From positions 1 through 50,305 of the forward strand of contig CAXUUL010000037.1 of assembly GCA_964255285.1 (NCBI GenBank): a DNA stretch of 50,305 bases, given 5' to 3'. The first letter of the stretch is position 1, and every line of letters starts with the position of its first letter. This DNA comes from Ionaspis alba (taxonomy: Eukaryota). Below are positions 3,422 through 46,808 of this stretch, piece after piece. Position numbers and translations under genes: made by a program. Under the pieces are notes generated by a model. The model did not search any database and had not been told where the DNA came from. It saw only the letters and a list, made by a program, of their open reading frames with translations.

Positions 3422-6400
3422 ATGACGCTTGCTTTCAATGTCTCTAACCTGGGACCCTTGTCTCAAATTGGCTTTGACTACAAAGATGTTGGCACAGCAG
3501 TCTACCTTGCCACAGGTGCCTATGGCTGGTTCAAGTCTCGAGAGCGAACACTCTCTTTGGAACAAACCCTAGCTGCCAGTGGTGTGTCCCTTGCTATTGT
3601 ATCCACCTTCAATTCTTCTCGGTACACAAAGTATAGGCAAGACCATGGCTGCACTTGCGGCGTTGCTCGTACTTTGCAGAATACTATAACTCGAATCAAA
3701 TTACCAAAGGCTTCAACAGCGTTGGAGGGGCATGCTGGCATGATGTGCTTGAGAGCTTTGACGTTAGCCTTACTCTGTTTTGTTGATCAGAGCCAAATCC
3801 CTGCCATCCTAAAAGACATCCTACCACGCCGCCTATTTCATTACGATCAGGAAGGAGAGGAGTTTGTGATTGAAGGGCCCTCTCTAGCAGCACTTATTCG
3901 ATATGTGCAAGCAATCAACACCGAAGAGTCTATAGATGACCTACGGACGAAGTTGCTGAACCGGGTAGACAGCCAGATCCAAAGAGTCACCAACGCTACA
4001 ATGGATGATATTTTGATCTCGCAGCAGACCGAGATAGGGCATATCGTCGGCCTCGTTGACTGGCTGCTGACTCCCGCGGCAAAACGGGATATCAGCATCT
4101 ACCGGACTCGAAGTTTGAGGGTTTGGTGTCTGGCTCTAGTCTTATCTGAATTGGGATTTGAATTGGAGGCCGACCGTACAGCGGTCACGGAACCTTTGAG
4201 CTTATCTAAGCTAGAACGAGAATCAGAGTACTATAATCACGAGGCACGAGTTGTCTTAGTTCTGGCTTCTGGTTGGTCCACAGATCAAGCTCGCAAACTC
4301 TCGCACGCGATTCACGATAGATTCCATCAACGTGTCCACATCCCTCCTCGAATCATCACAGTACGGGCGTTTCCTGCTATTGCTTATGCGGACAATGTTA
4401 TGGATCAAAGCTTTCGTGGATTTCCTGCAGACGCCACGGACCTCGAGCGAGCCTTTGTTGGTACTTTCGTATTTGTTCGGCATAAGCTTTCTTGCGAGAG
4501 CTCTGTTCGCACAGCTGCTGGCCTGGAAAGCGCAAAGGACATCGACAAGTCATTGTACGGTGCTCTTCTAGAAGAACCTGGAGCAGCCCAAGAGAGGGAT
4601 GTTCTGCGGGCACTTAAAAGGTTCTTCAGACATTCCTGTCGGCTAAACGATCAGGACATACCCAGACTTCAGAGCTTTGTCGGACCACTACTGACACCAC
4701 TGATTTGCGAGTTTCTTGTGCCTTGGCATAATCGGCGTGGAGAGAGCACAGAGCTTTTCGAGGGCGACTCCCGGATTATGATGGACCACATTCTATTTTC
4801 GTCCATTATAGCAGTATTCTCCTTATTCATTAATACTGATACAGACATGACAGATAAATCGGGATTAGACATGGAATTTATATATACTGGACCAATTTGG
4901 CGGACAAGAGGCGGTGGGTCCATTTTAAACAAATGGTTTGCACAGACCATGTCATTTCTTATCTCATTGGAAGCCGACTATTCTTCTTCACAATTAAGAG
5001 ACTATAGGTGGAATATGCTGGTCCAAAAGGTAACTGCAAGCTCTTCCAACTCTGCTGTCCCTGCACGCAGCCTTCGACTTCCCAGGATCTGACCTGAGCC
5101 CTTAGGTGGTGCTAGGAACAGACTCAGATGACTTGATAGGTCACTGGGGTACGTCAAGATATGGACTCTCAGTGGTCAACGAATTTGTCCTTCGTCCAAC
5201 CACACAAAGCTCATCCGGCTATGTCTTCTACGTTTCGCGAGGCCAGCTACTGGACATACCACTGAAGAATGGCTGCTTAAAGTCGGGATGTTCTGTTTAC
5301 CACACTCTGCCACTATCCCAATGTCCAGCAATCTCAACTGAAAATGAGCTTCTAGGTGTCATACAGGGGATGCCAACTATTGATATATCTTCATTGCGCC
5401 TGGATCTCGAGCCATGCTGGGACGATGATCCGGAAACCTGCTGTTACATTCTTCGTGCAAGCGGTGTGCCTAGACTTCAGCTTTCAATACATTCACTATC
5501 CCGTGAAAGGAACGAGAATACCTTAGATGGAAGGGTCATCAGAGTCAAATGCTCCGGAGACCGGGCTTCCTGTCCTGGGCCTGCAAGTACAACTCAAATG
5601 ATACTGCATCATGAATCGTACGATCGATGTCGGTATCTTCCACTTGATAAGATGATAGCACAAGGATGTTGTAGAACTGAGGTTACAGACGTGTCGTCGA
5701 AGAAATCTGCTCGACAACAGCCCAACTGCTGGATTGTCCGGACCTACGATAGTGATATTATGCTAATGATTGCTTTGGCTTGTGAGGTAGCTCAGACGTA
5801 TTCCAACTACGAAGTCACAAGAATTGTTACAGATTGTCTTGGAACAGTCTTGATGGCACAAAGGACGAAACCAATACGCCCTTTGATGATAATTCTACAC
5901 CAAGAAAGGCACAAACGTTTTATGGAACCTCAAAGATTGGGTTACAACCAGCGTGATGACCTATTGATGACCGCGGCTACTATAATTTCTGAAGAGCACA
6001 ATCACAGGGAAGTCTATGGGGCCCCGTCAGCAGCTCAACACCAAGTCGAGATGGAGATCTGCAGACTCATGCAACCACTTGACCCCGACGACTCTGATGA
6101 GTACTGCCGCACGGTCATTCGACAGCTCTCATACTATCGACCCTGCAAAGGCGCTAACAAAGGCTGGCACTACTTTGTCCTACGATCTTTAGATATACCA
6201 AGTCTAATAGACACCAATGATGGTACCGAAGAGAACCGTAAACGTTTACGTGATAGTACAGACCTCTTGATCAGACAATGGCAGCGGAAGAACTTATCTA
6301 GGGTTGAGCTTGCTGAAATACGCAAAATCGTCCACGAGATAGATCAAGCAGTTAAGAAAATTCGGGAACCAGAAGCGCAAGTCTCGGACTTCGAGGACGA

Positions 6401-6497: not shown

Positions 6498-7156
6498 ACT
6501 GGTGATGGAGATAGCGGGGGTAAGGGCCAAGATGAGAAGTCTTCGAAGCTAAGCTCGAGGCGTAATTTCTTCCTGTAATGGCATAGGTTATGAAATCTTG
6601 TGCAAGTAGTGGTTGCCATGTTGGGGGGATTGATATCCGGGTCGACATCCAGCACGTCAGAACGCGAAGGCGGTAACAGGAGGGCAGTGTGATGGTTTTG
6701 GGGAAGTTCCTGCAATAGATTTGGGGTGGACCACGTTGAAAAGGGTTGTATGTGAAACATAGGGGCTGTACTAAATGCAAGGTGATTGGAGTAGCTCCTA
6801 GAACTCTATAGAGAATTAGCGGCGTCATCTGACCGTACTGAAGTAATGCTATGTTGGAATGAAGTTAGGCATCATGAAAAAATTAGAGTGTTGTTGCTTT
6901 TTTGCTTCTTCAGGTAGATCAGGGTTAAAAAAGATTAATCTTGTGCCGAAAGGTGCGCAGCGGGGTAGGTATTTGGGTAGCTTACCTTCGTTAATCTATT
7001 GGTCTAAGATGGTTCCAGAGTTTTTCGAATCACAGGATGAAGAGATCGTCTGCACATGCTCGATTTTGCTCTATTGCTCGTGATTCACTTTGGAGTGCAA
7101 TACAAGTGCACATTCCAGGATTACAAATATGTTTGCCTAGATTTGTAACAAGTAAT

Positions 7157-8594: not shown

Positions 8595-10359
8595 ATGCTA
8601 CCTCCCTACCAGTGTCTGCTTTTCTGCTCGAAGCATCACGACCGGCAGAACGGCATTGTACTTGGTGCATCTGCCTCATCGATTTATTCTTTCAGTGCTT
8701 CTAATGGCTCTTTCTTGTCCGAATGGTCTGCCGTGACACCAGAGCGGCCCAGAAAAGTATCTCAGTCTGAAGTCTCGTCAAAGGGTACAGGAGAAGGCAA
8801 TGATGGCGAACATCGACAGAAGCGTCGAAAGCTCTCTACTCCCGGAGATTATTCTGACAGTACATCGGCAGAAATAATTTTAGACAATGATGGTCTAGAA
8901 CGGCGGGAATCTGGGGCACTTAAAGACCCAAAGCTGTCCATCCTTAAGCTTGCTGGAACTTCCGACGGAGAGTATGTAATTGCGGTCACTGGAGAGGACA
9001 AATGTATTCGTGTCCTCAAATTGCTGGAAGAAGGGGAATTACAGACTCTCAGTGAGCGGTGAGAGCTGCAGGGTTTCACCTGTATCAAAATTTCACTGAT
9101 ATGGTAGCAGACACATGCCGAAAAGACCTTGTTCCGTAGCGTTAACCCCAGATCAATCTACCATTCTATGCGCCGACAAATTTGGAGACGTGTATGCATT
9201 ACCTCTTCTCGAGTCAAGAACATCTAGCCCAACCTCCGGACTTGGCGAATCTGATGCCTTAATTGATCCTAAAGCTGAGGCAAAGACGAAAGCTTTTATA
9301 CCATCTGCAAGCGCGCTCACTGTGCACACACAGCGAAACCAGAGGGCACTCAAGAATCAGCAGAATACTGTTAAAATGGTCGCAGAAAAGAAGTTCTTGG
9401 ACTTCGACTATCAGCTCCTCCTCGGTCATGTTTCCTTACTAACAGACTTGGTCTATGTTACGCTTAGGCCTGATCAGGGTGCAAGCACGAGTACTCGAAG
9501 CTATATCCTAACTTCAGATCGTGATGAGCACATCCGTATATCTCGAGGTCTCCCACAGGCCCATGTTATCGAGGGATATTGCTTAGAACATAATGAGTTT
9601 GTGAGCAAGCTATGCGTGCCCTTGTTCGACCCGGAGATGCTCATATCTGGAGGAGGAGACGACTATATCCTTGTATGGGACTGGGTAAACAGACGAGTCA
9701 AACAAAAAATCGATATTAAGCACATGGTAAGCGCGTGTGGAGCGGAGAGAGTTGCGAAGGCTACTTTCAATGACCTACCAGATGCGTGGTCTGACACAAG
9801 GTCAAATGAATCTCTGGGCAGCGTTCACCTTGCTGTTTCGGGAATCTGGGCAATGGAGACAGAATCCGTCTCTCTCCATGGTACAAAGGGGCAGATAATA
9901 GTAGCATGCGAGGGGTAAGTATTGGGCCACCGACACTAGCATTGAAACATGGACTGATTTTGTCCTAGTGTTCCAGCACTACTCGTGTACTCTGCAACCC
10001 CGAAGGGAGAGCTGATATATCACGACACTCTGACAACGGAAGGCAATGTGCTTGACCTCACTATTCTCCAGGATCGGTCTACGATTATATACTCTATGGA
10101 TAATGTCCATCTACCTGGGTCAAAAACAATGGTTTCGAGGCACAGCGTAAGCAGAAATGCAGTGGGCTCATTCATCTACTCCAGTGTGTCTCAAGCCTGG
10201 AGCCACCGGGGCAGTAAGTATGACATTGCTCCTACCATCAATGCGTGGTCTTCAAAGCATAGAAATAGTTCAGGGGGTACAGTGGGAGATGAGCATCAAC
10301 TGAGCAAATTACTTTATAGTATTGAGAACCTAAGGAAGAGGGGCCAAGACGACATATAG
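8595..10359 (+). CDS. TRM82: tRNA (guanine-N7)-methyltransferase non-catalytic WD40 subunit
   Basis: Exons 8595-9058, 9111-9914, 9969-10359. Motifs TGEDKCIRV, MPKRP, ADKFGDVY, LLGHVSLLTD, DRDEHIRISR and C-terminal IENLRKR. Confidence 0.92.
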
Positions 10360-41850: not shown

Positions 41851-42509
41851 TGTGTAGCTGTTGAGTTTGGGAAAGCTGTCTGCTCAAGTCCACCAGGACT
41901 AAAGGAGCTGAATCCAGTACTAGAAAGTACCACTGAAAAGGAAATAAGGTCAAAGCAAAATTGGCGACGAAGGAGTGCTGAGGCTAAAAGTACATGAGAG
42001 AGAACGAGTGTGAGCGTCTGCTCCTAGAAAGTGTTGCTTCAGAATTGAAAGGTCGTCATATTTGCAAGAAAGCACCCCAATTCATCAGGACACCGCGGCC
42101 ATTATTGAGATCCACGGGCCGGAGTCGCGGCGCGGACGGGCTAATCCCGAAAGCGCTTAGCTTGGTAGTGACACATCGCGGAACTCTTCTTCCGGTAATT
42201 CTTGCTCTGTAGTCGTTTTTGACTATTCAGCCATCCTCCTTCACATACGTGCCAACGTACCTTTGACTCCCATCGACAGCTTCCCTCTCATGTTGGTGCT
42301 TACGGGAGTCACCTCGTAACGAGTTGACTTCCAGCACTGCTGGCTGTCGACTCAGCTTCCGCAAGCGGTCATAGGCTCAAACTTCTTTGTCTAGAGATCA
42401 CCAAGTGACATCGACACATTCCTGCCTACTACCGACAGCAGAAATTCGGCCTCCCCATTACGACTATTCTTCAAACGACAGCTCAAGACCACCTACTGGC
42501 ATTCATACA

Positions 42510-44813
42510 ATGGCACAACAACATTCGAACCCGCCAAATGGGCCGAGACGAGGGGCTCGAGGCACTCCAAATTTCCGCGGCTCACCTCGCGGCGGTATAC
42601 AGAAGCGTTCCAATGCAAACCTTCGATTCGACAAGGACGGTGATCTGAATATGGAACCTACCGTAGGAAATGGGAGAGGCCGGGGACGTGGTTCCGGAGG
42701 CAGAGGATTCCCTCCAACACAACCCACTGGTGGGCGAAACGTTCTTCCCAGCCGCCAACCCAGAAACAATTTGATTCCAGCAGTGATAGAAAAAGCAATC
42801 TTCGGAGGCTCGGGTTCTGTATCTACCGTGATAAATAATCCTTCGGCCAAGTACACTAAGGCAGGCGCCCTGGGAGAGCCTGTCCGGGGAAAAAGTGGGT
42901 TGGATCAAATTGCTGTTAGTGGATGGAAGCAGAGCAAGGCATCTTCAAATCCGGATGGGGGCGTTAGAGATTTACTGGATTTCCTGGAACGAAAAGCAAG
43001 CCATAACGCACCGCCACATGAGAGAGTCAAGATCAAAAAGGTATGTCTGAAATCACACTCCGCCGGTCACCAACGTTCTAGCAACTTCGCCCTCATTGGT
43101 CCGCTCTCGTTTCAAACCAATCTACCAGAACGACGACCGAGGTTCTCGAATATCATCGCTGTGGCATAAAAGTGGCCAGCAACTTCAAGGTTTATATGCC
43201 TTGCTAACGTTGTTTAGTCACGAATAGAAGGTGACGCTCTGGTCGTCTCCGTGAGACCCGAAGACACAGAAAAAGTCATGCGGCTAGACTCGTTCCAGTT
43301 TGCCGGAGTGCCTCTTGCGATTCAGATGTGGTTAGCAAGACCAGAACCAATCTCAGAGGATGGTGTGCAATTGTTGGACAAGATTACTGCCATGATCGAA
43401 CGACGTTATAATAAGGATCTTAAGTTTCTCGATCTCTCGGCGCTGGGAAACGAAGCAGAGTTTGCTGTTGGCGGGATGTTCGATACCACCGCTAGGCAGA
43501 CTAAGTTCTTTCTGGCCCTCATGAAGGTCTGCGATACCCACTTCGCGACCCCGGAGCAAAAGCGAGAGACTGTCGTCAGTGTCAGCTTAGCGAACAACGC
43601 TCTTCCGAATGTCACTCCCGTCACAATACTTTCTCAGACCTTTCCAGATGTTAAGAATCTAGACTTATCGAACAACAACCTTACGGATCTTCAAGCTCTC
43701 CAAGCATGGCGTTGGAAGTTTCGGTCTCTGGAACACCTCATTCTTGCTGGCAATCCTATTGAAGCCGAAGTTCCATCATATCAAGAGGAGATGACCAAGT
43801 GGTATCCCAAACTCCATACTCTCAATAGCACAAGGGTTCGGTCGGAGGAGGAGATCGCAGCCCCTTCAAAAAGTGTGATTCCAATTCCAATCCTCTCCCC
43901 TAGCTTCCGTGATGAAGCATCTGTTGGCCACAATTTTGTCACAGAATTCTTTTCGACCTACGATAGAGATCGGAATTCTCTAGTGAAGGGGTATTACGAC
44001 TCTGAGTCAACCTTCTCACTAAGTGTGAATGTCTCCGCTCCTCGGTCGCAGGATTCGCAGACAAAGGCTCAAAACTGGGAACAATATATTAAGAAGAGCA
44101 GGAATCTAACCAAGATCACAACACTACCCGCGAGAATGGCTAGGATATACAAAGGGATAGAGAAGATTCGTGATTCATGGCTTACACTACCGACTACTAC
44201 GCATCCCAACATCGTGGCCGAGCCTGAGAAATGGAACATCGAGTGTCATTCAATTCCAGGTCTTCCAGATCCCACTGGCCAGTCACCTTCCGGAGTTGGA
44301 GGCCTCATGGTTATGGTGCATGGCGAGTTTAAGGAATTCGATGTTTCTACAGGCAACACAACCAATCACCGCAGCTTCGATCGGACTTTCGTGCTTGGAC
44401 CTGGAGGAGGAATTGGAGGTGTGCGAGTGCTGAACGATGTTCTCGTCTTGAGAGCATATGGTGGACACGACGCGTGGAAGCCGACTGATGAGGATAACAA
44501 CGTCTCATCAGTCCCCTCAGTCCCACTAAAATCTCTGCTCCCTATCCTCCGTGTTCCGGAAGGTTTTGGTGCAGCTGGACCGGGGAAAACGGCTGAGCAA
44601 GTTCAGCAGGAGCATATGGCGCTGGAGTTGAGCAAGGCAACGGGAATGACGCTGCAATACTCGGGGATGTGCTTGGAACAGAATGCTTGGAATCTGGACG
44701 TGGCGGGTAATGCTTTCCAGCAAGCAAAGGTGTGTGACTGTACCGCCGTCATTACTCGTAGGGTAATGACTGACTTGAAACAGGCAAATCTGCCCGCGGA
44801 GGCGTTCTTCTGA
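42510..44813 (+). CDS. MEX67: mRNA export factor Mex67 (NXF1 orthologue)
   Basis: RGG-rich N-terminus, LLDFLERKA, LRR (VKNLDLSNNNL), NTF2-like domain (HGEF, RSFDRTFVL) and TAP-C/UBA (TGMTLQYSGMCLEQNAW...LPAEAF); introns 43041-43217 and 44730-44783. Confidence 0.95.
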
Positions 44814-45425
44814 GTTCTGCAAGGAAAAGGTCGAAGTAGCAGTACGTGCATACTAGGCGCATTATAGAGATTGTTTGCGCGTTTTGCATATATCTGGGTA
44901 TATTGGATGTTCGGGAGTTTGCTAGGGCAGTCCTCTTTGTTTCCGTTCGGGTGCCCAAAAGGGTCATGGTCTCCGTTGATCGGTAGATTGAGATTGTCGG
45001 CTTAATTAGATCTAATAACCCCACACTTTCGATTTTCACTTCCGCATCCCAATATCTCACTTTGATCTAGGTGATCCATAATACAAATTGCTGTCCAAGT
45101 AGTTCATTGGGGAGTAGGAGTTGCTCGTTTTTGTTGCGCACGGGTCTTTGGTGCTGTGCAGACCAGTAGCAAGGCTGAAGCAGTGTTGATACGATCCCAT
45201 TCTTGCCTTTCGAGTCTACAAAAGCTACTTTCGTCGATACTCCAAGAAATGAACGAAAGGCAAGGACGGCGGCCTCAAGGGGTTCCGTCCTCGCCTTGTC
45301 ACGTCTGACAAATATTTTAAAGATGGAGACGAACACGAACCAACTCGGTGCAGGGTATATCGGTGGAGCTAAAAAAACGTGACCTCAAGATATATGAAGG
45401 GCATGATTCTACCACGCCGTCTCCT

Positions 45426-46808
45426 ATGGTGGCCTTAAACTCCATCATCCATTCGCACCGCAATCCCCAGTCTCTCCTCCACCACCTTACGCCCCATCTC
45501 CCCTTCACTCTTCCCCTAGTCCGGCGCCTCCAATTCCATCACCATTCCCCACACGCTCAAATCCTCTCCACCATCCCGCCATGCAGGCCTACGACCACGC
45601 AAATTTCAACTCTCCCGTTTGCCGCAGCTTATATCGACCGCTCCCGCGCTCCTGAAACCGAATGCTGGATCTTCTCCTCAATCGAGCTACCGTCTACTGC
45701 TTCACTTTCTCCCGTTGATGAAGTTCCTATTGCCGGTGGCCATGAGGAAGTTGAGCTCGCAAAGCAGCAGCTCTTGGTTCTTCTCGCTACCATCCGCGCC
45801 CTTCCTCTCCCACCGTCCTTCCCCAACGCTCAAGATTCAAATCTGCTTCTTGTTGGTGCACTGCATATCCGGGTCTTGGAATTGCTGAAGGGCACACCGA
45901 TCGTGCTGAGTGAAGGAAAGAGGATTATATCTGGTCGCAAAACACTGACGTCAAATCACGATCGCGAGGCTACAACCCTAGGCAATGGGACTGCGGGCAA
46001 AGGTTCTACTCAAGGGCTAGGAATTGGGAGTAACAGGAACGGGGAATCACAACCGGAACAAGCTGAAGCGACTAAGGATGCAGGGACCGAGAGGAGAGCA
46101 TCCGGAGAGTGCATGCATGAGAGTGAAGGAGGAAGAGAGAAGCATACGGGAGGCGTGGTGAGAGGCCATACAGTGCCTTATCGGAAGTATATCTTTGCGC
46201 CATCCGGCACACTGGGAAAAGGTTCTACGAACGATAGCGACCTCGACCTCGACCTCGACGTCGGTGAGACGATCAAGGATAAAGAGCTGAAATTGCCTCC
46301 CGATCTGGAATGGACGATTGTCCACCCGGAGGAGCTCGCACTTGTGATCAGTCGGACCGAAATACCGAGGACGGAAGGGACATTGGGACTATTGCAGAGT
46401 ATGGGTTTGCGGGTGCGAAAGAGGCAGCCTCCGTGTGGGGAGGGCAATGGCGATATAGAAGCTGAGGGGAGCACAGGGAACGGTCAGCTGATTGCGTGGG
46501 CATTCCTTGGTCCTGATGGCTCGCTGACGAGCTTACATGTGGAGGAAGGGTGGAGAGGAAGGGGTCTGGCGAAGAGGGTGGCGGGGAGGTTGTTTGAGCT
46601 TGTCGGCGCGAGTGACTACGTATGGCCGAATGGAGTGGGGAAAGGGTTTTGGGGGGTGGCAAATGGAAAGGAGTGGTGCCATAGCGATGTTGCTGCTGAC
46701 AATAGAGGGAGTATCAGAGTTGCGGAGGGATTGGGAGGTGTGTGGAAATGGAATTGCTTTTGGTGTTGGATCGATTTGAGGAGCATAGAAGGTGGAAAGG
46801 CAGTGTGA
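45426..46808 (+). CDS. GNAT/FR47-like acetyltransferase-domain protein
   Basis: Single exon; SRAPETECWIFSS and C-terminal AWAFLGPDGSLTSLHVEEGWRGRGLAK (acetyl-CoA motif A), HSDVAADN; low-complexity central insert. Confidence 0.85.
   Translation: MVALNSIIHSHRNPQSLLHHLTPHLPFTLPLVRRLQFHHHSPHAQILSTIPPCRPTTTQISTLPFAAAYIDRSRAPETECWIFSSIELPSTASLSPVDEVPIAGGHEEVELAKQQLLVLLATIRALPLPPSFPNAQDSNLLLVGALHIRVLELLKGTPIVLSEGKRIISGRKTLTSNHDREATTLGNGTAGKGSTQGLGIGSNRNGESQPEQAEATKDAGTERRASGECMHESEGGREKHTGGVVRGHTVPYRKYIFAPSGTLGKGSTNDSDLDLDLDVGETIKDKELKLPPDLEWTIVHPEELALVISRTEIPRTEGTLGLLQSMGLRVRKRQPPCGEGNGDIEAEGSTGNGQLIAWAFLGPDGSLTSLHVEEGWRGRGLAKRVAGRLFELVGASDYVWPNGVGKGFWGVANGKEWCHSDVAADNRGSIRVAEGLGGVWKWNCFWCWIDLRSIEGGKAV

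Follow-up and report, generated by a model that had tools for sequence, protein, structure and literature searches.

Mex67/NXF1 is the general mRNA export receptor, and we know of no account of how fungi set its level. In the animal gene, an intron lying between the LRR and NTF2-like domains contains a constitutive transport element (CTE), whose discovery in a retained NXF1 intron is reportedly due to Li et al. in 2006. In vertebrates this is intron 10 (PMC4338338). The Saccharomyces cerevisiae export-factor gene YRA1 limits its own expression through its intron, by inefficient splicing and decay of the unspliced RNA in a pathway that includes Mex67 (PMC2864733). Conserved intronic stem-loops in RPL22B and RPL30 are bound by protein and inhibit splicing, and the unspliced RNA is degraded (PMC4838235 and PMC13630204). 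Here we describe a conserved element in the first intron of the Mex67 gene of Ionaspis alba, located in a 50,305-nt stretch of contig CAXUUL010000037.1 (hereafter the window).

Fungal comparative genomics has delivered structured introns and untranslated regions for which autoregulation was proposed (PMC8216456, PMC5640933), and these are the same kind of object; the terms 'MEX67', 'NXF1' and 'export' are absent from the main texts of both papers. A full-text literature search, with most subscription journals outside it, found no description of a Mex67 intron element in print. A conserved intronic splicing-control RNA in an RNA-processing gene is a known kind of element, of which the Mex67 instance was not found described. 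With moderate confidence, we propose that intron 1 of Mex67 holds a conserved cis-acting RNA element that sets the splicing efficiency of this intron. We further infer that the unspliced RNA is degraded and that splicing is regulated by a trans-acting factor.

Conservation of intron 1 across fungi

The gene occupies positions 42510-44813 of the window, with three exons and two introns, and encodes the LRR_NXF1, NTF2-like and TAP-C (UBA-like) domains by which the Mex67/NXF1 family is recognised. Unless stated otherwise, all features given below lie on the + strand. Intron 1 (43041-43217, 177 nt, phase 0) is a canonical fungal GT-AG intron. It starts with GTATGT at 43041, contains the branch site TGCTAAC at 43202-43208 (branch A at 43207, 10 nt 5' of the 3' splice site) and ends with TAG at 43215-43217. 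The exon junction, KK/S, is the same as in spliced NCBI proteins. It corresponds to residue 185 of Trapelia coarctata Mex67 (P0015), in which RRM_9 covers residues 156-222; intron 1 therefore splits the RRM.

An earlier note on this DNA had singled out the intron by its 177 nt, set against 50-100 nt for other introns of the window. The length is correct, and the contrast could be checked in part: a regular-expression survey of the window mixed real introns with false ones and left six plausible candidates of 52-73 nt, and intron 2 of the same gene measures 54 nt. Further comparators came from a protein-guided scan of metagenome contigs, which yielded 35 Mex67 loci (L numbers). A long intron is present at the same phase-0 site in 16 of the 35, representing 10 distinct sequences, or 11 with the window. 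These introns measure 168 nt (L003, L004 and L005, and also L006), 172 nt (L009-L013), 176 nt (L020, L021), 180 nt (L008), 192 nt (L001, L024, L007) and 206 nt (L002). At the same site, L017, L018 and L014 have introns of 50, 53 and 113 nt, respectively, and L015, L016, L025 and L035 have none.

When exon 2 of the window was compared with that of nine loci, identity was 42-58% for amino acids, 52-60% for nucleotides and 30-36% at third codon positions; neutral sites are therefore saturated. Two intron segments are 85-100% identical versus these 30-36%, and are thus conserved beyond neutral expectation. Block A (43098-43141) is identical at 38-40 of 44 positions in L003, L006, L009 and L011, with lower identity (31-32 of 44) in L001, L024 and L007. 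Block B (43179-43217), the 3' end of the intron, is identical at 33-39 of 39 positions in seven orthologous sequences. The 5' part of the intron (43047-43097) shares 25-31 of 51 nt with the window sequence, and the middle (43142-43178) shares 10-17 of 37 nt. The conservation of the intron core among orthologues, which the earlier note had only supposed, is therefore strong, as judged from the identities of the two blocks, from the sequencing contigs and from the read-through open reading frames (ORFs) described below.

Block B had escaped the earlier note, yet it is conserved more widely than Block A. Its motif, CAAGG-N(6-9)-CCTTGCTAAC, has a single copy in the 50-kb window; 16 of the 35 loci likewise have one copy each, and in every case it is at the 3' end of intron 1. 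In L002, L020/L021 and L008 this motif is present and Block A is not recognisable; in the introns of L002, L008 and L020, a covariance model of the hairpin formed around Block A (model R1) gave no significant match. A quick single-gene maximum-likelihood tree placed the window with Trapelia and Circinaria, L003 with Alectoria and a Lecanoromycetidae sp., and L006 with Psora, so that Block A is present in each of the two large Lecanoromycete subclasses. The loci with Block B only were placed outside this group: L002 with Rasamsonia (60% identity; Shimodaira-Hasegawa-like approximate likelihood ratio test, SH-aLRT, 99), and L008 (54% identity) and L020 with Rhynchosporium (SH-aLRT 100). The small hairpin of Block B thus appears to reach Eurotiomycete-like and Leotiomycete-like fungi.

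A search of sequencing runs with words taken from the intron only gave matches in nine runs from six studies, and contigs from four of them (X4, X7, X8 and X10) could be aligned. X2, X3, X5 and X6 contained 2-3 of 12 sampled words and X9 next to none; none of these was counted. The X4 match is a 250-nt contig with an ungapped alignment to 43032-43236 and 34 differences, of which those listed for 43080-43146 are at 43116 and 43125 only. Several contigs of X8 align, some of them only to 43179-43268, with a depth of up to about 960. The X10 contig aligns to 43098-43139, with 2 nt missing at 43124, in the loop. Missing read cover over the exons is uninformative, because the exons of relatives are too diverged for the 80% threshold. 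The X8 sample also contains contigs of 34 and 36 nt (depth about 950) that are identical to Block B (43179-43212) and lie next to three different exon-2 continuations, which suggests that several fungi in this sample have identical Block B words.

Other searches returned little. A codon-degenerate pattern of the core had no match in the genome, viral and metagenome contig collections, and a DNA pattern of both arms had none in the genome and viral contig collections. An nhmmer profile found no other copy in the window or the loci, except that window 8700-8757 (- strand; 12.6 bits, E 0.007) weakly resembles the 5' arm of Block A ('...GGGCCGCTCTGGTGTCA...'), a match that we judged to be due to chance. 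The only match of note to model R1 was a weak one in the intron region of L019 (10.8 bits, E 0.81). In this Mex67-like locus, positions 436-578 match the intron of the window over 12 consecutive nt and in segments resembling Block A. L019 is without Block B and apparently also without the coding sequence for the latter half of the RRM; it may be a degenerate or divergent copy.

Predicted structures, intron retention and gene context

The earlier note had read five nested complementary pairs by eye (43065-70/43172-77, 43086-89/43147-50, 43091-94/43139-42, 43098-101/43135-38 and 43107-11/43129-33), closing an A/C-rich loop (43112-28). All five are present, and the loop has the composition described. 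In both the minimum free energy (MFE) and the centroid fold, the four inner pairs are predicted to form an imperfect four-helix stack, hairpin A (43085-43151), with helices P1 (43086-89/43147-50), P2 (43091-94/43139-42), P3 (43098-101/43135-38) and P4 (43107-11/43129-33). Block A is the ultraconserved top of this hairpin. When folded separately, L003, L006, L009, L001 and L007 also have the four-helix stack as their MFE fold. The outer helices vary in sequence and yet pair: CCUC/GAGG in the window, UCUC/GAGA in L003, UAUCU/AGAUA in L006 and L009, and GUCUCC/GGGGAC in L001. In a register-free comparison of duplex energies, in which all 5' and 3' flanks were paired with one another by lineage, the cognate set was the most stable of 120 permutations. 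The differences listed for the relatives fall mostly in the loops 43095-97, 43116-25 and 43145-46; C>T at 43092 leaves a G-U pair intact, and G>A at 43148 breaks one pair of the outer stem. The predicted hairpin architecture thus recurs in five lineages and its flanks co-vary; covariation within the register is thin.

Block B contains a predicted branch-point hairpin (43186-43203), in which CAAGGT (43186-91) pairs with GCCTTG (43198-203) around a 6-nt loop, and whose 3' arm overlaps the start of the branch site. The pairing CAAGGU/GCCUUG is found in all 11 aligned introns, with RNAalifold and single-sequence folds in agreement. Five of the six base pairs are constant and the sixth, the closing U-G, is replaced by U-A in one intron; the loop varies in sequence and length. 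In Lecanoromycete-type introns, both RNAalifold and single folds predict an additional outer helix, GCAAC (43179-83) with GTTGT (43209-13). CUAAC then sits in an internal loop between the two helices, 10 nt from the 3' splice site. The z-scores of the Block B fold are -3.19 (window), -2.33, -1.45 and -1.34.

Two further features of the intron were noted. A 9-nt sequence, AGCAACTTC, is directly repeated at 43080-88 and 43178-86, one copy standing at the opening of the outer stem of hairpin A and the other at that of Block B; in L003 and L006 the first of these copies is not conserved. The MFE fold of the window also pairs 43071-84 with 43201-12, which would sequester the branch site.

Retention of intron 1 always truncates the protein. 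In the window, the read-through runs for 42 codons to a TAA at 43167-43169, exactly as the earlier note had stated, and a premature stop follows retention in 11 of 11 orthologues (within the intron in nine, just after it by frameshift in two). Intron 1 thus combines conservation beyond neutral expectation with a premature stop on retention, two of the features by which autoregulatory or unproductively spliced introns are recognised. A 950-nt contig of depth 6 from the metatranscriptome X7 aligns to 43080-43225 without gaps and with 22 differences; intron-5'-like sequence continues upstream of the aligned part, and 45 nt of exon 2 lie downstream. The RNA library therefore includes a molecule with the intron in it.

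Exon 1 of Mex67 (42510-43040, from an ORF with its ATG) comprises 177 codons, encoding an RGG-rich N-terminus and the first part of the RRM, and is 45% identical to Trapelia coarctata Mex67 over residues 3-185. Exon 2 (43218-44729) encodes the remainder of the RRM and the LRR, NTF2-like and TAP-C domains, with Pfam matches to NXF_NTF2 (5e-48), TAP_C (6.9e-13) and LRR_NXF1-5 (3e-08). Its best named relatives, annotated as Mex67 or nuclear mRNA export protein, are from the lichen-forming Lecanoromycetes Trapelia (61%), Alectoria (59%) and Psora (57%), and identity to the Circinaria model is 58%. By these matches the window derives from a Lecanoromycete-like fungus, and the collection searched contains no closer sequenced relative. 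Intron 2 (44730-44783) is an ordinary intron by its sequence. The last exon (44784-44813) ends in ANLPAEAFF, like P0003 and P0004. Directly 3' of Mex67 lies an open frame of 495 codons, counted from stop to stop (45321-46808). Elsewhere, a box C/D small nucleolar RNA (snoRNA) of the Rfam family Afu_298 is found in the window at 6870-6946 (- strand, 45.7 bits) and in L009 at 5116-5189 (- strand, 42.5 bits), there a few hundred bases past Mex67.

Explanations for the constraint on the intron

The constraint might be thought to act on protein, if the retained-intron mRNA coded for a functional fragment of the Mex67 N-terminus that ends in a conserved peptide (...GPLSFQANLSERRPR...). We scanned the 42-residue intron translation against 1.84 billion protein representatives and obtained 16 proteins at E <= 0.001. 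Thirteen are ORFs that read from Mex67 exon 1 through the intron, in different 50%-identity clusters, and one is the ORF of the window itself. The remaining two, P0129 (a repeat protein) and P0134, are long and align with only a portion of the query. The string 'GPLSF...ERRPR', which the earlier note had attributed to mis-predicted Mex67 proteins of other Pezizomycotina, was indeed found, in the NCBI gene model P0001 from a Circinaria calcarea metagenome-assembled genome and in the two unnamed ORFs P0007 and P0008, which contain '...SNFALIGPLSFQANISERRPRF...'. Identity of the intron translation is 67-71% in these three; exon 1 is 36% identical to P0001 by BLASTP and 49-51% identical in a MAFFT alignment of four ORFs. 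Fifteen ORFs share the frame and stop at nearly the same place, and animal NXF1 does produce a short protein from a retained intron (PMC5170612). However, the shared frame is an ascertainment effect, because the set was found by peptide search. Among DNA loci, L009 and L011 read Block A from exon 1 in a different frame, and L001 and L024 reach a stop after 2 codons. The X10 contig carries a frameshifting indel and one X8 contig three single-base deletions. Intron substitutions hit all three codon positions, the peptide shows radical exchanges (P to L, S or R), and the protein made would stop partway through the RRM. The recurring string is therefore one frame's translation of a non-coding element, and the constraint on the intron blocks is not coding. 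Since frames and early stops differ among DNA loci, a coding tail was rejected and is hardly credible as an explanation. A functional short isoform, as the earlier note had envisaged, is unlikely for the same reasons, the read-through peptide not being conserved across frames and its product stopping in mid-RRM. Two database models do treat such sequence as coding: P0001 counts 35 codons of intron 1 and fuses Mex67 to a histidine-phosphatase gene, and the JGI model P0002, from another fungus, reads through a 165-nt intron at the same site.

Three other explanations take the element to be non-coding. Intramolecular pairing that promotes splicing is known in long introns of S. cerevisiae, and the hairpins might simply bring the 5' splice site effectively closer to the branch point of an unusually long fungal intron, or present that branch point, without any regulation or specific factor. 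A shared architecture with outer stems that differ in sequence, together with the consensus splice signals GTATGT and TGCTAAC, would suit such a constitutive aid. Structure alone, however, does not explain 44 and 39 nt that are near-invariant while neutral sites are saturated; related fungi manage with an intron of 50-53 nt or none at this site, and an intron-containing RNA contig could be assembled (X7). We therefore regard this explanation as unlikely. Fungal snoRNAs are often intronic, and Block A, a compact conserved hairpin within the intron of a housekeeping gene, could be a stable small RNA (snoRNA-like or of a new class) with a function elsewhere, matured from the intron after its excision; the window does contain a C/D snoRNA at another place. 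Against this, Rfam 15 gave no match at E <= 10 in window 42300-45000 and none at gathering score at the intron of L001, L002, L003, L006 and L009. No C/D or H/ACA box arrangement was seen by eye, and nhmmer found no further copy in the window or loci save the weak match already mentioned. A hosted RNA would also have no need of Block B, which overlaps the branch point and the 3' splice site. We consider a hosted RNA improbable. The snoRNA check proposed with the earlier note thus gave a negative result, and both snoRNA and riboswitch readings (for example the fungal thiamine pyrophosphate riboswitch) were rejected for want of an Rfam match. Finally, the blocks could act in DNA, as transcription-factor sites or as an internal promoter or enhancer in the first intron. 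Both stem arms are invariant in sequence, and alifold energies do not tell the two strands apart, as a DNA element would allow. However, the flanks co-vary in a way that keeps complementarity, and substitutions by which G-U pairs arise or persist (43092 C>T, and the equivalents of 43137 and 43111 in L001) fit a + strand RNA only. Block B, moreover, lies exactly at the branch site and 3' splice site. A DNA-level function thus has little to recommend it, and we give it a low probability.

In the explanation that we prefer, a cis-acting element that sets splicing efficiency, the structure of Block B would compete with BBP and U2 for recognition of the branch point. The small hairpin would bury the nucleotides just 5' of CUAAC, and the further helix would pair those separating the branch point from the 3' splice site. 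A trans-acting factor probably recognises the invariant top of hairpin A and would tip the balance toward or away from splicing. By analogy, candidate factors would be an mRNA export or TREX component, possibly Mex67-Mtr2. When splicing failed, the stop in mid-RRM would yield an unproductive transcript, subject to nonsense-mediated decay (NMD) or nuclear decay, or at most a non-functional fragment, and Mex67 output would be lowered. In a more specific version, Mex67-Mtr2 or a TREX partner (Sub2, Yra1) would read the first-intron hairpin, and this hairpin, together with the one masking the branch point in Lecanoromycetes, Eurotiomycetes and Leotiomycetes, would switch the pre-mRNA between splicing and retention with decay, a mechanism that fungi would have evolved independently of animals. 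This version draws on analogy, and we hold it to be doubtful.

Several results weigh against a folded regulatory element. The whole intron has an MFE of -37.2 kcal/mol versus -35.65 +/- 3.45 kcal/mol for dinucleotide shuffles (z -0.45), a stability reached by 63 of the 200 shuffles. Hairpin A (43085-43151) has a z-score of -0.59 in the window and of -0.3 to -1.8 across lineages. In eight sequences compared in register, 85% of cells are paired and just 3 pairs change on both sides. The group-2 sequences L001, L024 and L007 break P2-P4 in the register of the earlier note, and RNAalifold favours another register of the inner helix, CUC/GAG plus GUU/GAC. The outermost helix of the earlier note (43065-70/43172-77) found no support, 13 of 120 permutations being as stable. 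The alifold energies of the forward and reverse strands do not tell the strands apart. Because the stems of Block B never vary, its pairing is unproven and recognition of the sequence explains the data equally well; pairing in Block B is plausible. On the RNA side, support consists of a single contig from one library. As this library was prepared from total RNA depleted of ribosomal RNA, the X7 contig could be nascent pre-mRNA or DNA carry-over. Binding of the element by the Mex67 protein, like its likeness to the CTE, is pure conjecture by analogy.

Comparison with described systems

That an intronic element has hardly changed among lichen-forming fungi points to strong selection on the control of Mex67 after transcription, and the element is a candidate new RNA family. 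Being small, sharply bounded and mutable, it offers a test case for branch-point masking in filamentous fungi. If the doubtful version with Mex67-Mtr2 or a TREX partner were true, fungi would have a feedback loop that arose in convergence with the NXF1 CTE, and Aspergillus-type models would allow the homeostasis of mRNA export capacity to be tested directly.

RPL22B and RPL30 resemble the Mex67 locus, on our proposed reading of it, in having a conserved intronic stem-loop linked to splicing. They differ from it in that their regulator is the product of the gene itself, and in that the Mex67 element is conserved in sequence as much as in structure. YRA1, like Mex67, is an export-factor gene. 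It is nevertheless another gene, without sequence similarity, and its intron is modular and directs Edc3-dependent decay, whereas a branch-point hairpin is found here. The YRA1 intron is also far longer than intron 1 of Mex67.

NXF1 belongs to the same NXF1/Mex67 family; there too a conserved structured intronic element lies in the receptor's own gene, and retention truncates the protein. The CTE intron is situated between the LRR and NTF2-like regions, whereas intron 1 of Mex67 splits the RRM. Its position, inside the RRM and not at the place of intron 10, thus puts the fungal element outside the CTE family. The CTE also promotes export and translation into a functional short protein, whereas the peptide is not conserved here and the transcript is likely unproductive. 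The parallel with animal NXF1 and yeast YRA1 nonetheless suggests a recurrent design, in which export factors police their own pre-mRNAs.

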